Source of the DNA: Clostridia bacterium
GTDB lineage: Bacteria > Bacillota > Clostridia > Christensenellales > SZUA-584
Length of the DNA stretch: 64,000 nt
Reading direction: 5' to 3'
NCBI GenBank assembly: GCA_003249555.1
Contig: QKIQ01000067.1
Coordinates: forward strand, 27,835 to 91,834
The notes beneath the pieces were generated by a model. That model worked only from the letters and a program-made list of their open reading frames with translations. It was not told the origin of the DNA and did not search any database. Position 1 is the first letter of the stretch; the number at the start of each line of letters is the position of its first letter. This document shows positions 1 to 24,649 of the stretch, piece after piece. Position numbers and translations under genes: made by a program.

Positions 1-762
1 TTCGCCTTTTTTAATGTCGTAGTCATACGTGCCTTCAAAATCGCCGTAGCCCGAGTAAACGGACACTTTGCCGTTCTTAAAGCCGAGGATTTCGCCGATT
101 TCTTCACTGCTCCAAAGACCTTCCATGGTTTTGAGCACGTACTTTTCCACATCGCTGCCGTCCTTAAGCTTCACAAACGTCGATTCATCATTTGCGTCCA
201 CCCCCTCAAGAACAAGTTCGTCTTTGCCAACTGTAAATGCATATTCGTTCCCGTTGGCGCTGATTGAGCCGGCGGCTTTGCCTTTGTCGTATGTATAGTC
301 CGCTTCAAATGTGCCGGTCAAATCGTATGCGATAACCGAGTTGTCTTCGTTGAAAACGAGCGCCCGGCCAAACTCCTCGCAATACCACTGGCCGGTGACC
401 GGCGTGCCGCCCAAGAAAAGCATTGCCAGCACAACCGCTGCGGCCACAAGAACCACGCCGCCGGCAACGAGGCCGATGATGAGCCCTGTCTTCTTTTTCT
501 GTGGCGCTTCTTGATATGGCGGCATACCATATGGCTGCTGCTGCGCAAATGGCTGCTGATGCGGGGGATACGCTTGCGGCTGCGGCTGATATTGAGCCTG
601 ACTCTGCGGCTGAGCTTGCGGCGTAGGCTCTGGCTGCTGAGGGGGAGAGGAAGGCGGAACGGACTGCGGAGCTGAATCGGATTGTGCCTGAATCGGCGTG
701 CCGCACTGCCTGCAAAAACGCGAGCCTTCGGGGTTCTGGTATCCGCAATTAGTACAATTCAT
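1..762 (-). CDS. Zinc-ribbon domain membrane protein (3' end runs off window; absent from ORF track)
   Basis: RBS AGGAGG then ATG at 762; my translation MNCTNCGYQNPEGSRFCRQCG (CxxC..CxxC), Pro/Gln-rich linker, TM helix (KKKTGLIIGLVAGGVVLVAAAVVLAMLF), extracellular beta-rich repeats; frame open to base 1. Confidence 0.85.
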   Translation of the reverse strand, partial: MNCTNCGYQNPEGSRFCRQCGTPIQAQSDSAPQSVPPSSPPQQPEPTPQAQPQSQAQYQPQPQAYPPHQQPFAQQQPYGMPPYQEAPQKKKTGLIIGLVAGGVVLVAAAVVLAMLFLGGTPVTGQWYCEEFGRALVFNEDNSVIAYDLTGTFEADYTYDKGKAAGSISANGNEYAFTVGKDELVLEGVDANDESTFVKLKDGSDVEKYVLKTMEGLWSSEEIGEILGFKNGKVSVYSGYGDFEGTYDYDIKKGE

Positions 763-885
763 GTTTTCCTCCTGAAAAGTAAAAAAGACAATGTGATATT
801 AATATATTAAAGATATTATATCATATGCCGATGGGAATAGGTATAAGAAATATAAAGGTGTATACATTGAAATTAAGCCTTTAAA

Positions 886-1422
886 TCAGGCTTTTTTGCG
901 ATCAACTTCGACGACGTAGGGGAGATTCCGCCATTTTCCACTCACGTCCATACCGTAGCCCATGAGCCATGCGTCCGTGACCTCGAAGCCGGTGTAGGCA
1001 AGCGGCACGTTGATAAGCTGCTGTGCCGGGTTGACGAACAACGCGCAAACCTTGACGCTTTTAGGGCCTCGGGATTCCAGATTCTGCACAAGGTATCCAA
1101 GGGTTAGACCCGTGCGCACAATATCCTCAACGATGAGCACATGCTTGTCCGTAATGTCAGTATCCAAGTCTTTGGTAATGCGGACGACGCCGGTTTTGCT
1201 CGTGGCGGTGGGATACACGCCGATGGATATGGTATCAAGCTGAATAGGCAGCTCGATGGCGCGTGTTAAGTCAGCGCAAAAATACAGCGAGCCTTTAAGA
1301 ACCGTGACGATCACAAGCTCTTTATCCGTGTAATCCTGCAAGATCTGAGCGCCAAGTGCCGCAATTCGTGATTTAATTTGTTCTTCCGTAAAGGCAACGC
1401 GCTGATATGTGGGCTTTGTCAT
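886..1422 (-). CDS. hpt: Hypoxanthine phosphoribosyltransferase homologue with variant active site
   Basis: VLKGS, KDLD, VLIVEDIVRTGLTL, GYGMD, RNLPY motifs of HPRT. Confidence 0.85.
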   Translation of the reverse strand: MTKPTYQRVAFTEEQIKSRIAALGAQILQDYTDKELVIVTVLKGSLYFCADLTRAIELPIQLDTISIGVYPTATSKTGVVRITKDLDTDITDKHVLIVEDIVRTGLTLGYLVQNLESRGPKSVKVCALFVNPAQQLINVPLAYTGFEVTDAWLMGYGMDVSGKWRNLPYVVEVDRKKA

Positions 1423-1426
1423 ATGC

Positions 1427-2362
1427 TTATTCTCCGCTTAGATTAAACCGCTCTGCGAGCGAATGAAAATCCTTTTTGTAAACCACCTTGATGTTGATGC
1501 CCGGATAAAGCTCGCGTAGCTTTTTGACTTTTTTATTCTTGTCGGTCACGTATTTTTGATTCATCGTGGTCAGCTCGATGAATGTATCGAATTTGGGCAG
1601 ATAAAAATCCGGGCTGAATGCCGAAATCACGTTGCCGCCTGCGTCCCATTCGACGGGAAACGTTTTGGGCTCGTAAACCCACTCAATATGATACATATCT
1701 AGCAGCCGCGCAAACTCAATTTCAGATTCGTTTTTCAGCACCGCCAAGCCGGACAGATTGGCCTTAGCGCTTATATGATCAGCGTGCTGTTCAATGCGCC
1801 GCTTTATTGCGCGCTGTTCGTGCAGCGCCATGACGGCGGCCACACACTCGTCTGCCCCGAGGTTTGCCGTATTGAGAGTCAGATGATATTGGGAGGCTTC
1901 GGCAACCGATGCACCGAAAAGCGTGTAAACGAATTTCTTTTGTTTTTTATCCGCTTTAGACAATATCTGCTCGGCTTGCGCGTCAGACACATGGTATTGC
2001 TTTTTAAGCCGTGCAATGCGGACGCTGTCCGGTGCGAACACCCGTATATGCAGCGCACTGTCGTCATTCGCGTATATCGCCTGTGAACCGAAGCCGACAA
2101 GCACGGCATTGTGCGTGCGTGTAAAAGCACGCAGGTTTTGACTAAGCAGATCGAGAAAAGTGTCTCCTGTTTGGCTCGCTGTGAGATAGTATTTAGCGCT
2201 TTCGTTAAGCATATGCCTCTCGTGAGGGCTGGCTGCGGTGTCTAAAAACATCGAAAGCCATGTGTCATGAGTAATTAGCTCAAAGCCGAGTTTTTGTGCG
2301 AGAGCGGCGGCAATTTCATTTCCGAAGCTGCCCCGCTGTCTAGAGATTGTGATAACGCTCAA
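1427..2362 (-). CDS. Cytidylate kinase-like domain fused to C-terminal PD-(D/E)xK nuclease-like domain
   Basis: N-term VITISRQRGSFGNEIA (cytidylate kinase-like family); C-term SEIEFARLLD..YEPKTF..FSPDFYLP..FIELTT. Confidence 0.75.
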   Translation of the reverse strand: MSVITISRQRGSFGNEIAAALAQKLGFELITHDTWLSMFLDTAASPHERHMLNESAKYYLTASQTGDTFLDLLSQNLRAFTRTHNAVLVGFGSQAIYANDDSALHIRVFAPDSVRIARLKKQYHVSDAQAEQILSKADKKQKKFVYTLFGASVAEASQYHLTLNTANLGADECVAAVMALHEQRAIKRRIEQHADHISAKANLSGLAVLKNESEIEFARLLDMYHIEWVYEPKTFPVEWDAGGNVISAFSPDFYLPKFDTFIELTTMNQKYVTDKNKKVKKLRELYPGINIKVVYKKDFHSLAERFNLSGE

Positions 2363-2507
2363 AAGGACACCCTCCTTGCTTGTTTATTATAGCATAATCA
2401 GGCAAGACGTTGAATAGTCCTTAACCCCGCGATTTTGTTATTTATTTGAGCGACAGTGAGCGCACGTGTAGGGTAAGCTGTTCAAAAACATAAGAAGCGA
2501 GGTGCTT

Positions 2508-2954
2508 ATGGCAAAAAGGAGAACGCGTGTAAGCGGTACGCAGCTAAAAAGCGAAGGCTTATATACGGTAAGGTCTGGCGGCAGCTGGCAAATAGATTTG
2601 GCGGCGGTCAGACGGCGTATTGATGCGTATCTGAAGGAAGCGGCAGAGACGGGCAAATACAGCATATCTGGGCTTTGTATTGCGCTGGACGTGCCGAGAA
2701 GCGTGCTTGGTTTATGGAGAGAGGGATACGCCTGTGAGCAAGACACAGGCGCTGCAGCGGTGCTGCCCAATGAGTCGCTAAGCCGATGTGTCGAGATGGC
2801 GCTGCTGCATATTCAGCGGTATTGGGAAGAGGCCGACAAGCCGTCTTCAATGAATGTGAAACAGCTGGAAGCCACTGGCGCGCTTTCAGATAGTGCGCCT
2901 TTAAGCGTAGTGCCGCCTTTTGATCTGGGGCGTTTAAAAAAGTATTCCCAATAG
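2508..2954 (+). CDS. Putative terminase small subunit (GP3/DNA-packaging HTH-like)
   Basis: RBS GAGGTG, ATG 2508; IDAYL..YSISGLCIALDVPRSVLGLW..LSRCVEMALLHIQRYWEE resembles the GP3_package-type TerS pattern; lies upstream of TerL. Confidence 0.55.
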   Translation: MAKRRTRVSGTQLKSEGLYTVRSGGSWQIDLAAVRRRIDAYLKEAAETGKYSISGLCIALDVPRSVLGLWREGYACEQDTGAAAVLPNESLSRCVEMALLHIQRYWEEADKPSSMNVKQLEATGALSDSAPLSVVPPFDLGRLKKYSQ

Positions 2955-2960
2955 CCGTCA

Positions 2961-2990
2961 TTGAATAATCGGTAATTCTTGGGGTACAAT
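2961..2990 (+). promoter_or_regulatory. Sigma-A-like promoter for ferredoxin
   Basis: TTGAAT-18bp-TACAAT just upstream of the RBS. Confidence 0.5.
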
Positions 2991-3026
2991 AGTATTGATT
3001 TTTGTGTAAACGAGGAGGAAACAGCA

Positions 3027-3218
3027 ATGAAAGCAGTAATTGACCGTGACGGCTGCATATCCTGCGAACTGTGTGTGGATACGTGTCCTGAGGTGTTTCG
3101 AATGGCGGAGGATGGGCTCGCGGAAGTCTATGTGGATGAGATTCCCAAAGAGGCAGAAGATGCGGCGAATGAGGCGGCAGAAGGATGCCCCGTTGCCGTG
3201 ATTACGATAAACAATTAG
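3027..3218 (+). CDS. Single-cluster [4Fe-4S] ferredoxin
   Basis: RBS GAGGAGG; CISCELC...GCP motif, acidic, 63 aa. Confidence 0.92.
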   Translation: MKAVIDRDGCISCELCVDTCPEVFRMAEDGLAEVYVDEIPKEAEDAANEAAEGCPVAVITINN

Positions 3219-3232
3219 AAAGGATGTGCTTT

Positions 3233-3265
3233 GCGCCGAACGGTTTGCGTTTAGGCGCTTTTTTT
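3233..3265 (+). terminator. Intrinsic terminator after ferredoxin
   Basis: GCGCCGAACG..CGTTTAGGCGC stem followed by T run. Confidence 0.65.
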
Positions 3266-4723
3266 ATGAGAAGAGACGAGAGTGTAGAGATGGTGCTTTC
3301 CAGGGCATTTGGCAAGCCGACGCCGAAGCAAACCGCGTTTTTGCAGGCGAAAACGCGGTTTGTGGGATATGGCGGAGCAAAAGGAGGCGGCAAGTCGCAC
3401 GCCATACGTGCCAAAGCGACGTACCTGGCGTTTGAGTATCCGGGGATACAGATGCTCATTGTGCGGCGTTCTTTCCCGGAATTGCATGAGAACCATACCA
3501 AACGGCTGCTCGCTGTATATGCTCGCCTGCCCAAACTTTTTAAGCCCAAATACAGCGACAGCGAAAAAGTGTTTACGTTTCCTTGGGGGTCGCGCATCAA
3601 GCTGGGATATTGTCACAACGAAGACGATGTACTTCAGTACCAGGGGCAGGAATGTGATGTGCTTTTTCTTGACGAAGCCACGCAGCTCACCGAGTATCAG
3701 TTCGGCTGGCTGTGCGCATGCGTGCGCGGCACGGGAGATTACCCCAAACGCACCTATGTGACCTGCAATCCCGGTGGCGTGGGGCATGCATGGGTAAAAC
3801 GGCTGTTTATTGATCGTGATTTTAGGCACGGAGAGGACGCATGCGACTATACGTTCATACAGGCGCGTGTGTGGGACAACGCGCCCCTGTTTGCCAACGA
3901 CGACGGGTATAAACGAAGACTGGCTGAGCTTAGGAAAAATAAGGACGGCAAAACCTTGTCGGAGAAAAAAGAACTGGCAAAGCGCAGCGCAAGCTATGTG
4001 CGCCAGCTCGAGAGCCTTGAGCCCTCGCTGCGCCGGGCATGGCTGGACGGCGAATGGAGTGTGTTTGCGGGGCAGTTTTTTTCCGAATACAGCATAGACA
4101 AGCATGTTTGCGCACCTTTTGCGATACCCGACGGCTGGAGAAGAAGCGCCTCGCTCGATTATGGACTGGATATGCTCGCGGTACTCTGGTTCGCGGTGAG
4201 CCCGACTGGCCGCGTTTATTGCTACCGCAGCATTGAGATAAGCGATCTCACGGTGTCGCAGGCGGCTGCGGCGATACGGGATGCCCAAAGCGAAACGGCA
4301 GAAGAATACATTGCGCCGCCCGATCTTTGGAACAGACGGCAGGACACGGGACGCAGTGCCGCCGAGATCTTCGCTGCTAACAATGTGCCTCTGGTGAAGG
4401 CGGGCAATAGTCGCATTGATGGCTGGCTCAATGTCAAGGAATATCTGCGGTGCGATAGGGGAGAACCAACAATGATGTTTTTCTCATCTTGCATACCTTT
4501 GCTTAAATGCCTTCCGCTGCTGCGTCATGACCCCGCCAGGCCGGGAGACGCGGCGACGCAGCCGCATGACTTGACACACAGCCTCGATGCACTGCGCTAC
4601 TGGTGCTCGCGGCGGCAACTATGCCCAATTTCAGATGTGCTTGACGCACCAAATCTGTTTGGGCGCGGCTGCCGCGAAACCGGCACCGTGGAAGATTATT
4701 TGTTGGGAGGGTTTGAGCTATAA
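3266..4723 (+). CDS. Phage terminase large subunit (start 3266 or 3290)
   Basis: Walker A GYGGAKGGGKS, Walker B VLFLDEA, coupling motif TCNPG, RNase H-fold nuclease residues SLDYG and HSLDALRY. Confidence 0.92.
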   Translation: MRRDESVEMVLSRAFGKPTPKQTAFLQAKTRFVGYGGAKGGGKSHAIRAKATYLAFEYPGIQMLIVRRSFPELHENHTKRLLAVYARLPKLFKPKYSDSEKVFTFPWGSRIKLGYCHNEDDVLQYQGQECDVLFLDEATQLTEYQFGWLCACVRGTGDYPKRTYVTCNPGGVGHAWVKRLFIDRDFRHGEDACDYTFIQARVWDNAPLFANDDGYKRRLAELRKNKDGKTLSEKKELAKRSASYVRQLESLEPSLRRAWLDGEWSVFAGQFFSEYSIDKHVCAPFAIPDGWRRSASLDYGLDMLAVLWFAVSPTGRVYCYRSIEISDLTVSQAAAAIRDAQSETAEEYIAPPDLWNRRQDTGRSAAEIFAANNVPLVKAGNSRIDGWLNVKEYLRCDRGEPTMMFFSSCIPLLKCLPLLRHDPARPGDAATQPHDLTHSLDALRYWCSRRQLCPISDVLDAPNLFGRGCRETGTVEDYLLGGFEL

Positions 4724-4724
4724 G

Positions 4725-4751
4725 AAAAAAGGGCGGCAACCCGCCCTTTGT
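4725..4751. terminator. Bidirectional terminator between TerL and DUF2812 gene
   Basis: AAAAAAGGGCGG-CAAC-CCGCCCTTT. Confidence 0.75.
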
Positions 4752-5293
4752 CAGCCTTCGTGGATCAGCAGCTCTTTCTTTAATCGCCGGATTTTGCGCG
4801 TGATCTGTATTACCCAGGAGATAAATGCTCCTCCGAGTACAATCACCAATCCTCCCAGAATGACATTTCCAATACGAAAATAAGGAGAAATTCCGACCAA
4901 TAAATTCATTATGCCGATGCTGATTTCTAAAATGCCGAATCCGAGCCACCACCCGCGAATCCTTTTGTTGTGTGCGATTTGCGACGGGATATCCGAGTGC
5001 AGAGTAAACGGTCCGTCGGCGGCTTTTTTTCGAAAATAGACCCACCGCATGTATGACGAAACAAATTCCGCGCCTGTTTCTTCCACAAATCTTATATACT
5101 TTAGCGCTGCCGGATTTCTAGAACTGTAATCGAGCATCTCTATCCGGTAGATATACTTGCCCGGCGGCGTGTCTTCAAACACATAACGGCACCATGAATA
5201 ATCCGCCAAAGCGAGCCCATTGGCGCTCATTTCGTTGAGCCACTTTTCTTCCTTTTCCCAATTACAATAGGGTTTACGAATCACATGCTTCAT
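4751..5293 (-). CDS. DUF2812 family membrane protein
   Basis: WEKEEKWLNEMSANG N-term, YRIE, WVYFRK, two C-terminal TM helices; typical PadR partner. Confidence 0.85.
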   Translation of the reverse strand: MKHVIRKPYCNWEKEEKWLNEMSANGLALADYSWCRYVFEDTPPGKYIYRIEMLDYSSRNPAALKYIRFVEETGAEFVSSYMRWVYFRKKAADGPFTLHSDIPSQIAHNKRIRGWWLGFGILEISIGIMNLLVGISPYFRIGNVILGGLVIVLGGAFISWVIQITRKIRRLKKELLIHEG

Positions 5294-5613
5294 TTGTTCA
5301 CCCCTCCCGCAATCTGACGACCGTTGAGAATCAGTTCTTCCAGCCGCTCCAATTCTGCTAACACCATGGCTTTTCCGATGCCTGTAATGACGTATTCCTT
5401 CTTGCGGTCATCGCTTGTGCGCTCATAGGGCTCAATCCAGCCTTTTTCAACCAATGTGCTGATGGCGCCGTACAGTGTGCCCGCGCCCATAGACACGCGT
5501 CCGCGGCTTAACGTCTTCACGTTTTGCATGATGCCATAACCGTGCATCGGCTCAAAAAGCGATAATAGTATATAGTATACGGCTTCAGTGAGCGCACCTT
5601 GACTTTCCGCCAT
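5290..5613 (-). CDS. PadR family transcriptional regulator
   Basis: LTEAVYYILLSL..HGYGIMQ..GAGTLY..RKKEYVIT. Confidence 0.92.
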   Translation of the reverse strand: MAESQGALTEAVYYILLSLFEPMHGYGIMQNVKTLSRGRVSMGAGTLYGAISTLVEKGWIEPYERTSDDRKKEYVITGIGKAMVLAELERLEELILNGRQIAGGVNK

Positions 5614-5630
5614 GAAACAGCCTCCTTATT

Positions 5631-5700
5631 ATAACGAATAACGATGCATCGCAACACGATGTAACGCGTAACGATATAAATTATATCGGCATACGATATA
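5631..5700. promoter_or_regulatory. Array of four palindromic operator-like units (AWCG-N5-CGAT), probable PadR autoregulatory sites
   Basis: ataacgaataacgat / gcatcgcaacacgat / gtaacgcgtaacgat at 15-bp period, plus tatatcggcatacgatata. Confidence 0.6.
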
Positions 5701-6000
5701 ATTGTCAATAGGCTGTTGACTAAACTTTTGTTGGTAAGAAGATGAATGACATGAAATTTTGATTATCATAATAAAAAAGACAAATGTTCATGCGCTCCGC
5801 TTCTTTGCATTATGGCTTTATACCACCATTTTCACGCGCTAGATAATTAAAAAAGTGAGAATAATACATTATATGATTTACGTGGAAACATATTAGCGTA
5901 AATGCACTCAATTGACATAGCATTATTTCTCACATATAATGATGACTGATAAACAGGAAGGGACCCGTCGGATGATTGTTATTACCGGGTCAATATAGGT

Positions 6001-22877: not shown

Positions 22878-23771
22878 ATGGCTATACAATGCATGGAGCC
22901 CATTGCGTTGACGCGTGTCGCGCAAGGAGACTTTATTCATCAGATCAAGTGGGATGGCATACGCGGCATTTGCATGATGGAAAATGGGGCGGTATCGGTG
23001 TTTTCCAAGAGCGGGCGTAACGCAACGGCGGCCTATTTTGAGCTCTCGGTACTTAAGACTCAGATGGATGCCAAGCAGGCCGTGATGGACGGTGAGCTGG
23101 TGGTGTTTGTGGACGGCAAGCCGTCTTTTTATCACGCGCTTAAGCGCAGCCGTGTTCATGGATCCGCGGTAACTGCGCGGTATGCTGTGAGATACATCGT
23201 GTTTGATTTGCTGATGCTGGACGGTGAAGACTTGCGGAGCAAACCCATTGAGCAACGGCAGGCACGGCTCAAAGAGCGTTTTGAAGGCAGTGCAGTGGCA
23301 GCGCTCGCGGACAGCTTCGACGACGGCAATGCGCTGTTTGCGCTCATGAAACAAAAAAGCATGGAGGGCATCGTTTCTAAACGGCGCGGCAGCCCGTACA
23401 CGGCGGGCAAACGCCATAACGATTGGTTTAAAACAAAAACCGCAAAAAAGATACTTTGCATCGTGAGCGGTGTGCATTTTAATGAAGGGCAGGCGGCGTC
23501 GCTGATGCTGGGCATTTACCGTGACGGTTCACTCGTGCCTGTGGGGCATGTGGGTGCGGGGCTATCGCAGGAAGACCTGCGATGTCTTGGAGAATACGCA
23601 AAGAGAGAAGGCAAAGCCGAGGGCAAGAACGATATTGCTTTAGAACCAAGGCTCACTTGCTGGGTGCGGTTTGCCGAATGGACGCCCGCGCTCACTCTGC
23701 GCCATCCGGTGATGCTGGGCTTTGCGGATAAACCGCCGGAGGACGCCGCGGGAGAGGAGATCAGCTTATGA
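22878..23771 (+). CDS. ligD: ATP-dependent DNA ligase (LigD ligase domain)
   Basis: KWDG, DGE, VFDLL, EGIVSK, WFKTK, LRHP. Confidence 0.9.
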   Translation: MAIQCMEPIALTRVAQGDFIHQIKWDGIRGICMMENGAVSVFSKSGRNATAAYFELSVLKTQMDAKQAVMDGELVVFVDGKPSFYHALKRSRVHGSAVTARYAVRYIVFDLLMLDGEDLRSKPIEQRQARLKERFEGSAVAALADSFDDGNALFALMKQKSMEGIVSKRRGSPYTAGKRHNDWFKTKTAKKILCIVSGVHFNEGQAASLMLGIYRDGSLVPVGHVGAGLSQEDLRCLGEYAKREGKAEGKNDIALEPRLTCWVRFAEWTPALTLRHPVMLGFADKPPEDAAGEEISL

Positions 23772-24649
23772 GCACCATTACTGTGCAAGGCAGCACCGTG
23801 TCTATCACAAATCCTGATAAAGTGTTGTTTCCGGACACCGGCATGACCAAAGCCGGGTATATCGATGTGCTCGCCAAGCTGGCACCGTATCTTCTGCCGC
23901 ATACCACCGGGCAGCCGCTAACCGCGATCCGATATCCACACGGTGTGGGAGATCATGAGTTCTTCTATCAGAAGCGGCCGCCCAAAGGGACACCGGACTG
24001 GGTCAGCATCACCACCGGCGACAACGGCGAAACGTTTATCAACCTCGACAGTATGAAAACGCTGTTGTGGCTGGGCAATTCGGCAGCGCTCGAATTTCAC
24101 GTTCCTTTCTGCAAGCCCGACGGCATGCTGACGGCGCTCGTATTCGACCTTGACCCTTCGGAAGGGCAGACGTTTGAAGACGTTGCAGCGTGCGCATTGT
24201 CTGTCCGCGAGACGTTGACCGAACTCGGCGTGGCGTGTTACGCCAAGACATCCGGCGCATCGGGTTTACAAATCTATATCCCCACGCGGCGTATGATGTT
24301 TGAGGAAGGCCGCAAGATCAATACATTTTTCGGCAAGTATTTTGAAGCCAAGCATCCCGATTCCGTGACCATCGAGCGGCTTGTGAAAAACAGGGGGCGC
24401 AAGCTCTATTTTGATTATCTGCAGATGGGGCATGGCAAAAGTATCATCTGCGTATATTCGCCGCGCGCGGTGCCATGCGGCGCGGTATCGATGCCGGTCA
24501 CATGGGAGGAGCTTGAAAGGGGCGTGAGCCCTTGCGACTTTACGCTAAGCAATGCGGCACAGCGGCTGAAAGAGAAGGGCGACTTGTTTGCGCCCGTGCT
24601 CAACGAGGGTAAATCAAATTCCGCGTTGGAGGAAATTCTGAAAAGATAG
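23768..24649 (+). CDS. LigD polymerase/primase domain protein
   Basis: ITNPDKVLFP, RYPHG, FYQK, FDLDP, KTSG, FDYLQ, YSPR. Confidence 0.9.
   Translation: MSTITVQGSTVSITNPDKVLFPDTGMTKAGYIDVLAKLAPYLLPHTTGQPLTAIRYPHGVGDHEFFYQKRPPKGTPDWVSITTGDNGETFINLDSMKTLLWLGNSAALEFHVPFCKPDGMLTALVFDLDPSEGQTFEDVAACALSVRETLTELGVACYAKTSGASGLQIYIPTRRMMFEEGRKINTFFGKYFEAKHPDSVTIERLVKNRGRKLYFDYLQMGHGKSIICVYSPRAVPCGAVSMPVTWEELERGVSPCDFTLSNAAQRLKEKGDLFAPVLNEGKSNSALEEILKR

Follow-up and report, generated by a model that had tools for sequence, protein, structure and literature searches.

Hypoxanthine phosphoribosyltransferase (HPRT, encoded by hpt) is a textbook enzyme of purine salvage and a main target of guanosine tetra- and pentaphosphate, (p)ppGpp, in Gram-positive bacteria. 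The phosphoribosyltransferase (PRT) fold also occurs in PurR of Bacillus and in PyrR, which sense phosphoribosyl pyrophosphate (PRPP) or nucleotides and are coupled to DNA or RNA binding. Here we analyzed a two-gene cassette in which an altered HPRT is encoded next to a protein with a domain resembling T7 endonuclease I (PF05367; structures 1m0d, 2pfj, and 3cae). The cassette is located in a stretch of 64,000 nucleotides from a Clostridia bacterium (GenBank assembly GCA_003249555.1, contig QKIQ01000067.1, positions 27,835 to 91,834), referred to below as the window. Gene A encodes a protein composed of an N-terminal cytidylate-kinase-like (CK-like) pseudo-kinase and a C-terminal domain of the endonuclease I type, here called the ELTT domain, and gene B encodes a second-copy HPRT. 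Judged by its sequences, the ELTT family is a widespread variant of the endonuclease I or PD-(D/E)xK kind that has a new, consistent partner in HPRT and a predicted function. Both the family and its linkage to HPRT appear to be undescribed, and a literature search judged by titles gave no description of either.

According to the list of open reading frames (ORFs), both genes are on the minus strand of the window. Gene A extends from 1427 to 2362 (311 aa, TTG start) and gene B from 886 to 1422 (178 aa, ATG start), and the two are separated by the 4 nt GCAT, which agrees with the positions and spacing given in a first-pass annotation made from the nucleotide sequence. A GGAG is present within the last codons of gene A, and together with the short spacing it suggests translational coupling of gene B to gene A. 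The promoter and translation signals of gene A are located at 2371-2394 on the same strand and consist of an AAGGAGG ribosome-binding site (2377-2371) and an extended -10 box, TGCTATAAT (2394-2386). These signals were read from the sequence and from the enrichment of 8-mers in 76 upstream regions, in which words of the TGnTATAAT type ranked first, being present in 25 and 23 regions compared to a maximum of 8 after shuffling. Downstream of gene B, a gap of 123 nt precedes a gene for a zinc-ribbon protein (Pfam scan), and since a TGATATAAT box was seen by eye in this gap, the operon was read as comprising two genes. The best explanation for this arrangement is a chromosomal, presumably translationally coupled operon encoding a two-subunit module. 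The conservation of the gene pair and of its domains in hundreds of relatives confirmed that the pairing is far beyond chance.

The ELTT domain comprises residues ~205-311 of gene A (1430-1750, minus strand). No Pfam or NCBIfam model scores on this part. The model of phage endonuclease I, PF05367, gave no match to gene A at E ≤ 0.1, and the relative P0222 reached 20.4 bits with it compared to a cut-off of 29.1. The PHROG endonuclease and Holliday-junction-resolvase families matched the C-terminal part with E-values of 1e-6 to 1e-7, and a profile built from 40 family members matched chains of T7 endonuclease I (E-values 6.4e-5, 0.0041, and 0.0083). In the profile alignment, the family motifs E, tPDF, and iElT (E214, P251-D252-F253, and E263-L264-T265-T266 in gene A) are placed on E, TPDF, and VETK of T7 endonuclease I, with which the ELTT domain thus shares the active-site E, PDF, and E as well as the order of secondary structure elements. 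The two differ in the catalytic Lys of the ETK motif, to which the invariant Thr265 of the ELTT domain is aligned (20/20, 28/28, and 40/40 sequences). E214, D252, and E263 were likewise invariant in the sets of 20 and 28 relatives. The ELTT motif is followed by a basic helix (KNKKVKKLR in gene A, KKNRKLRRLR in the family consensus), and the domain as a whole is better conserved than the CK-like part of gene A. Two further differences to T7 endonuclease I are that the ELTT domain is chromosomal rather than phage-borne and that it is found fused to CK-like, GAF, or HPRT modules.

Structural comparisons pointed in the same direction. The AlphaFold2 model of the isolated ELTT domain had a mean predicted local distance difference test (pLDDT) score of 86.7. 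Foldseek with this model returned nothing at E ≤ 1e-3, and its list of weak matches was led by PD-(D/E)xK proteins, the first being T7 endonuclease I (E 0.012). In a fold search independent of Foldseek, the best rows were mostly PD-(D/E)xK, i.e., restriction-endonuclease-like, chains with Z-scores of 5-8.5, a range in which values below roughly 8 may indicate no more than a shared fold: a RAP-type mitoribosomal protein (8.5), Bax1 (7.6), I-Bth0305I (7.1), Vsr (6.5), TnsA (6.1), and the RAP module of FASTKD4 (5.9). The top matches thus include both RNA-binding RAP modules and structure-specific nucleases. The RAP or FASTK-type modules (9g6k_Li, 9gek_A) gave the best structural score (Z 8.5, 88 residues, root-mean-square deviation 3.5), but they are part of eukaryotic organellar proteins and share only 8-9% identity with the ELTT domain. 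Several lines of evidence from sequence profiles and structural models place the ELTT domain in the PD-(D/E)xK superfamily, as a probable distant relative of T7 endonuclease I. The acidic metal-binding residues E/D/E are present, whereas the catalytic Lys of the (D/E)xK motif is absent throughout the family. The first-pass annotation had recognized a PD-(D/E)xK-like domain with Thr in place of Lys and had made its case dependent on a nuclease fold in the C-terminal part; the profile match to T7 endonuclease I, the restriction-endonuclease-like fold matches, and the E/D/E triad corroborate this assignment. The replacement of Lys by Thr suggests binding or an altered chemistry rather than ordinary cleavage.

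To describe the genomic setting of the ELTT domain, we analyzed three sets of loci. A scan of species-representative genomes yielded 251 gene A relatives, and the top 80 were retained for analysis. A gene for an HPRT paralog starts within ~230 nt downstream of the gene A homolog in 78 of the 80 loci, and the remaining two loci end at a contig edge within ~25 nt of the match. The 80 loci span several named families and show 50-70% identity among each other. When their ORFs were clustered, conservation was confined to the two genes, and the largest genuine cluster after these, an ABC ATPase, was present in 20 loci. In a sample of 401 genomes of the phylum, the ELTT domain was found in 37 genomes, and HPRT was adjacent in 29 of the 30 loci returned. 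A sample of the order contained the domain in 18 of 201 genomes at E ≤ 1e-5 (15 of them with E < 1e-50), and within the window's own genus it was present in four of the five other genomes.

A metagenome scan gave at least 592 matches, and the third set consisted of the 80 best among them. An HPRT gene was located within 3 kb and on the same strand in 62 of these loci, in three arrangements: a CK-domain protein followed by HPRT (27 loci), an ORF with the domain but without CK, either stand-alone or with another N-terminus, followed by HPRT (15 loci), and HPRT 0.5-1.6 kb upstream of the domain gene (20 loci). No HPRT was found in 18 loci, none of which is a clear negative because the available upstream sequence never exceeded 1.7 kb. 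In the eight loci of the upstream arrangement that were scanned, the order was hpt, a gene with a PF02577 bifunctional-nuclease (BFN) domain, usually a merR-type gene, and the gene for the ELTT domain. Examples with a stand-alone ELTT protein are L101, L110, L118, L124, L136, and similar loci, with MerR missing in L124, and where the next gene was scanned (L101, L110, L100) it was gcvP, encoding the P protein of the glycine cleavage system. This cluster may resemble the actinobacterial neighborhood garA, MerR, BFN, MerR, small ORF, gcvB. A conserved linkage of the domain to hpt, on which the first-pass annotation had staked its proposal, was therefore found in 78/80, 29/30, and 62/80 loci and, in addition, in the form of natural gene fusions.

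A search of the full library with the 110-residue ELTT domain returned 1704 cluster representatives (50% identity) at E ≤ 1e-3, and at 90% identity and E ≤ 1e-5 there were 4938 short and 3977 long clusters. In the ESM Atlas, the closest clusters consist of small proteins lacking annotation, with Actinomycetota as the most frequent source, and the source names of ELTT relatives include Acidobacteriota (among them Bryobacteraceae) and, for the CK-like form, Carboxydochorda subterranea. Architectures were read in a subset of 38 proteins and from the sequences themselves. Besides the CK-like form, there are stand-alone ELTT proteins of ~115-160 aa, a fusion of the domain with a PRT (P0203), fusions of CK, domain, and PRT (P0151 and, by reading of the sequence, P0191, in which Pfam gave no PRT match), and fusions of GAF, domain, and HPRT with a canonical HPRT part (P0241, P0255). 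Of the relatives exceeding 214 aa, the best 120 were scanned: PF13189 was present in 93 and PF00156 in 15, and 12 had no Pfam domain. The N-terminal module of ELTT proteins is thus interchangeable, being absent, CK-like, or GAF.

A fused form is also present in a cultured organism, as the annotated hpt of Thermomicrobium roseum DSM 5159 encodes a 333-aa domain-HPRT fusion with Asn at the position of the catalytic Asp. In this protein (L210:3932-4933, NC_011961.1) the ELTT domain is N-terminal and the flexible loop is shortened; the gene overlaps the 3′ end of the convergent mutM. In one source, several ELTT-only proteins of ~104-150 aa (P0163, P0272, P0277, P0291, P0377, and others) bear the name 'hypoxanthine phosphoribosyltransferase' or 'bifunctional protein TilS/HprT', an annotation that was probably carried over from fused forms.

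Gene B passes the HGPRTase equivalog model TIGR01203 with 176.8 bits (cut-off 150). PyrR models scored about 20-23 bits with cut-offs of 138-268, showing that it is not a member of that family. With the HPRTs of known structure (4pfq, 2geb, 1r3u) it shares a full-length alignment, the PRPP motif VLIVEDI with E99 and D100, and the residues D159 and R165. It differs from 4pfq and 2geb in three motifs, with VEDIVRTG in place of VEDIIDSG, FVNP in place of LRKP/LDKP, and IGVY in place of the SSY loop. As a consequence of the first two changes, Arg103 occupies the position of the catalytic Asp and Asn131 that of the purine-binding Lys. From work on the human and parasite enzymes, we take the Asp of VEDIIDSG to be the general base and the Lys of LRKP/LDKP to read the 6-oxo group of the purine. 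Among the 78 linked paralogs of the genome loci, Arg was found at the Asp position in all 78, the three commonest residues at the Lys position were N, S, and C (75/78), and E99, D100, D159, and R165, which form the PRPP and metal side, were kept in 76-77. The catalytic alteration of the HPRT homolog reported in the first-pass annotation was thus confirmed and is fixed in these relatives.

The other two sets were more varied at the catalytic position. The linked HPRTs of the 29 Bacillota loci from the phylum sample carried D in 14, G in 12, R in two, and K in one case, and those of the 62 metagenome loci D in 43, R in seven, G in six, and N in four cases, with two not covered. The non-Asp HPRTs of the metagenome loci are almost all encoded beside CK-type proteins. 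E99, D100, D159, and R165 were retained in nearly all linked HPRTs of both sets. Gene B is a second copy: the housekeeping hpt of the same genome is located on another contig, scores 220.5 bits, and adjoins a 443-aa ORF, which we presume to be tilS from the usual tilS-hpt arrangement. In all 11 Bacillota genomes tested (the window's own and ten others), the linked HPRT was a second copy with a higher-scoring hpt elsewhere, regardless of whether the linked copy had the catalytic Asp. One related genome (G002:C1:467494-468553) contains two tandem hpt genes (217.5 and 208.3 bits) besides the cassette-linked copy (183 bits).

When the entire gene A protein was used as query, 1059 relatives reached E ≤ 1e-3; in most of the 120 listed, the match spans 98-100% of the protein. 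Its AlphaFold2 model had a pLDDT of 83.3, with values below 50 for residues 194-206 between the two domains. Residues 3-166 (1865-2356, minus strand) match Cytidylate_kin2 (PF13189) with an E-value of 1.3e-30 and 107.3 bits (cut-off 28), whereas the (d)CMP kinase equivalog TIGR02173 gave only 27.1 bits compared to a cut-off of 102.1. The closest structures found by Foldseek were 3hdt (E 5.7e-13) and 3fdi (7e-12), followed by nucleoside monophosphate (NMP), shikimate, and dephospho-CoA kinases. 3hdt and 3fdi are structural-genomics Cytidylate_kin2 proteins of unknown function that share the N-terminal fold (target-normalized TM-score 0.81-0.87) and the degenerate P-loop, but with 161-179 residues in the structures their chains are too short for a C-terminal nuclease-like domain. 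For the PF13189 family, the literature, judged by titles, held nothing on function. The P-loop of gene A reads S-R-Q-x-G-S-F-G-N-E, in which T5, S7, R8, Q9, S12, and G14 are invariant among relatives. The first-pass annotation had described it as a CK-like P-loop without Lys, and both the PF13189 match and the GSFGNE loop support that description. Because the invariant Gly of GSFGNE (G14) is at what we take to be the Walker Lys position of CMP kinases, the N-terminal part is more readily understood as a binder of a nucleotide-like ligand than as a kinase.

How these parts might act together can be stated tentatively. Our preferred reading, held with somewhat less than even confidence, is that the cassette encodes a purine- or PRPP-sensing complex with a sensor-output logic similar to that of PurR and PyrR. 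The ELTT domain and the HPRT-fold protein would form a complex, in which the HPRT fold and the N-terminal pseudo-kinase would report the level of PRPP or of a purine nucleotide, possibly (p)ppGpp, and the ELTT domain would serve as the output that binds structured DNA or RNA and perhaps cuts it in a restricted way. We infer all three elements, complex formation, ligand sensing, and nucleic-acid output, from the following features. The ELTT domain and the HPRT-fold protein are treated as one unit because their pairing is constant across phyla, because they are found fused, and because the N-terminal modules are swappable. In Bacillota, the HPRT fold may have been kept for binding PRPP or ribose-phosphate and not for salvage, since it is a second copy in which residues of the purine side are replaced and those of the PRPP side are kept. 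An output facing nucleic acid is proposed because the metal triad is retained together with the basic helix, and an interchangeable N-terminal module (none, CK-like, or GAF) fits a sensor input. A prediction of the complex between the gene A and gene B proteins gave scores on both sides of the 0.32 mark (0.31, 0.31, and 0.35; 0.00 for the controls) and carries no weight in either direction. The likeness to PurR and PyrR, a PRT fold with reduced or moonlighting catalysis combined with a nucleic-acid-binding part, is an analogy of logic only, as the cassette has a PD-(D/E)xK domain rather than a winged helix and its PRT belongs to the HPRT subfamily. Of the nucleotide-sensing regulatory or defense module proposed in the first-pass annotation, the sensing part gained from the interchangeable N-terminus, the second-copy status of the HPRT, and the drift of its purine side with PRPP residues kept, while the defense branch found no support (see below).

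Several observations count against a sensing complex. Nucleic-acid contact, ligand binding, and sensing are predictions from sequence and models. The 76 upstream regions contained no conserved operator-like motif by k-mer enrichment, only the sigma-A extended -10 box and the ribosome-binding site, and no riboswitch was found with Rfam, either in the window from 1 to 6000 (no match at E ≤ 1) or in 13 related loci (none at the gathering score). A Thr in place of Lys is by itself no proof of lost cleavage, as other PD-(D/E)xK enzymes use other residues. The distribution is patchy, with 18/201 genomes of the order and 37/401 of the phylum. Finally, the majority of linked HPRTs outside Bacillota appear catalytically intact (Asp in 43/62), and therefore the HPRT activity may matter and the ELTT domain could simply regulate salvage.

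This last point leads to the alternative that survives best, although we regard it as unlikely. Here the ELTT domain would be a subunit that does no more than regulate or scaffold HPRT, tuning salvage via ligands of the CK-like or GAF modules, and would have no role with nucleic acids. The canonical HPRT in those 43 metagenome loci and in the GAF fusions fits this possibility, as do the start/stop overlaps common among the loci (-3 nt in many), which suggest translational coupling, and the absence of the domain from phages and of any mobile context. On the other hand, a scaffold needs neither an invariant E/D/E triad nor a basic helix conserved across phyla, and the Bacillota partner is always a second copy (11/11 genomes) that lacks the catalytic Asp in 15 of 29 loci, so that often little salvage activity would be left to regulate.

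An improbable alternative is the salvage of a non-canonical base or nucleotide, in which the altered pocket would admit a different base, yielding an NMP for phosphorylation by the CK-like domain. A PRT and an NMP-kinase-like protein would form a logical two-step pathway, and the retention of the PRPP residues next to a remodeled base pocket (Arg, Gly, or Asn for Asp; Asn, Ser, or Cys for Lys) that is fixed within clades (R103 in 78/78) is what such an enzyme might look like. However, the CK-like domain has no Walker Lys and scores below the cut-off of the CMP-kinase equivalog, some ELTT proteins carry a GAF module or none at the N-terminus, the occurrence of R, G, N, K, and C at the catalytic position across clades fits relaxation better than one new specificity, and the nuclease-like domain is left unexplained.

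Highly improbable is an anti-phage defense or toxin-antitoxin module acting as a nucleotide-sensing nuclease switch, as the first-pass annotation had envisaged: the two-gene format with a nuclease-like domain, the terminase genes adjoining the cassette in the window, the patchy distribution (~9% of sampled genomes) with variable flanks, and the occurrence of PRT-fold proteins in some defense systems speak for it, but PADLOC gave no match better than E 0.0014 (best matches 0.0014 to 0.04, the stronger ones over short stretches), the ELTT domain had no match in 50,697 phage records and a single one in 72,556 plasmid records, located on a chromosome-like replicon of 918 kb under the annotated T. 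roseum hpt, the cassette is flanked by genes for transport and metabolism rather than by defense islands, the window's own genome has one full-length match to the cassette, i.e., a single copy, conservation among the 80 genome loci is very high, and terminase genes are adjacent in only four of these.

The terminase genes mentioned above had been noted in the first-pass annotation as divergent from the cassette, and they are indeed present at 2502-4723 on the plus strand. They form an apparently orphan packaging trio that comprises a terS-like gene with weak matches to GP3_package (E 0.013) and phrog_57 (E 0.042), a gene for a 4Fe-4S ferredoxin (Fer4_13, E 8e-16), and terL (phrog_979, E 9e-40). 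Membership in a prophage was considered and rejected, since ordinary chromosomal genes follow this trio as far as scanned; no other phage genes were detected among the ORFs scanned between 4.7 and 47 kb of the window. The trio occupies the same divergent position in four of the 80 genome loci (L008, L009, L010, and L013), all from close relatives, in which TerL shows 66-71% and gene A 66-68% identity, and a fifth locus (L050) contains terL in another arrangement. This pattern suggests that the terminase either was domesticated or is a remnant maintained by vertical descent. The trio is common to only four close relatives, the terminase genes are unrelated to the cassette elsewhere, and those adjoining it in the window are incidental. 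Directly after terL, on the opposite strand, a gene pair for a DUF2812 protein and a PadR regulator is located at 4751-5613. Further downstream, a plus-strand gene at 23768-24649 encodes a stand-alone LigD primase-polymerase domain protein (PF21686, E 5e-68), and the neighboring ORFs scanned contain no ligase domain.

The linkage described here accounts for two kinds of annotation problem, as it explains why ELTT-only proteins carry the name of HPRT and why some annotated hpt genes of ~330 aa are in fact fusions. With the fused form in the cultured T. roseum DSM 5159 and the CK-like form in Carboxydochorda subterranea, the question of its function is directly testable. In a wider view, which we consider doubtful but worth stating, the ELTT domain would be an unrecognized, phylum-spanning partner of HPRT that, together with HPRT or a pseudo-HPRT, couples the status of PRPP, purine nucleotides, or (p)ppGpp to the recognition or processing of nucleic acids with a defined structure, for example four-way DNA junctions, tRNAs, or leader RNAs, and thereby acts as a metabolite-gated switch. 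Where an organism has only one hpt, the housekeeping HPRT would double as the sensor. If this is true, the cassette would represent a new class of metabolite-gated nucleic-acid switch. The linkage itself implies a previously unknown layer in the control of purine salvage, or else a coupling of nucleic-acid transactions to purine status.

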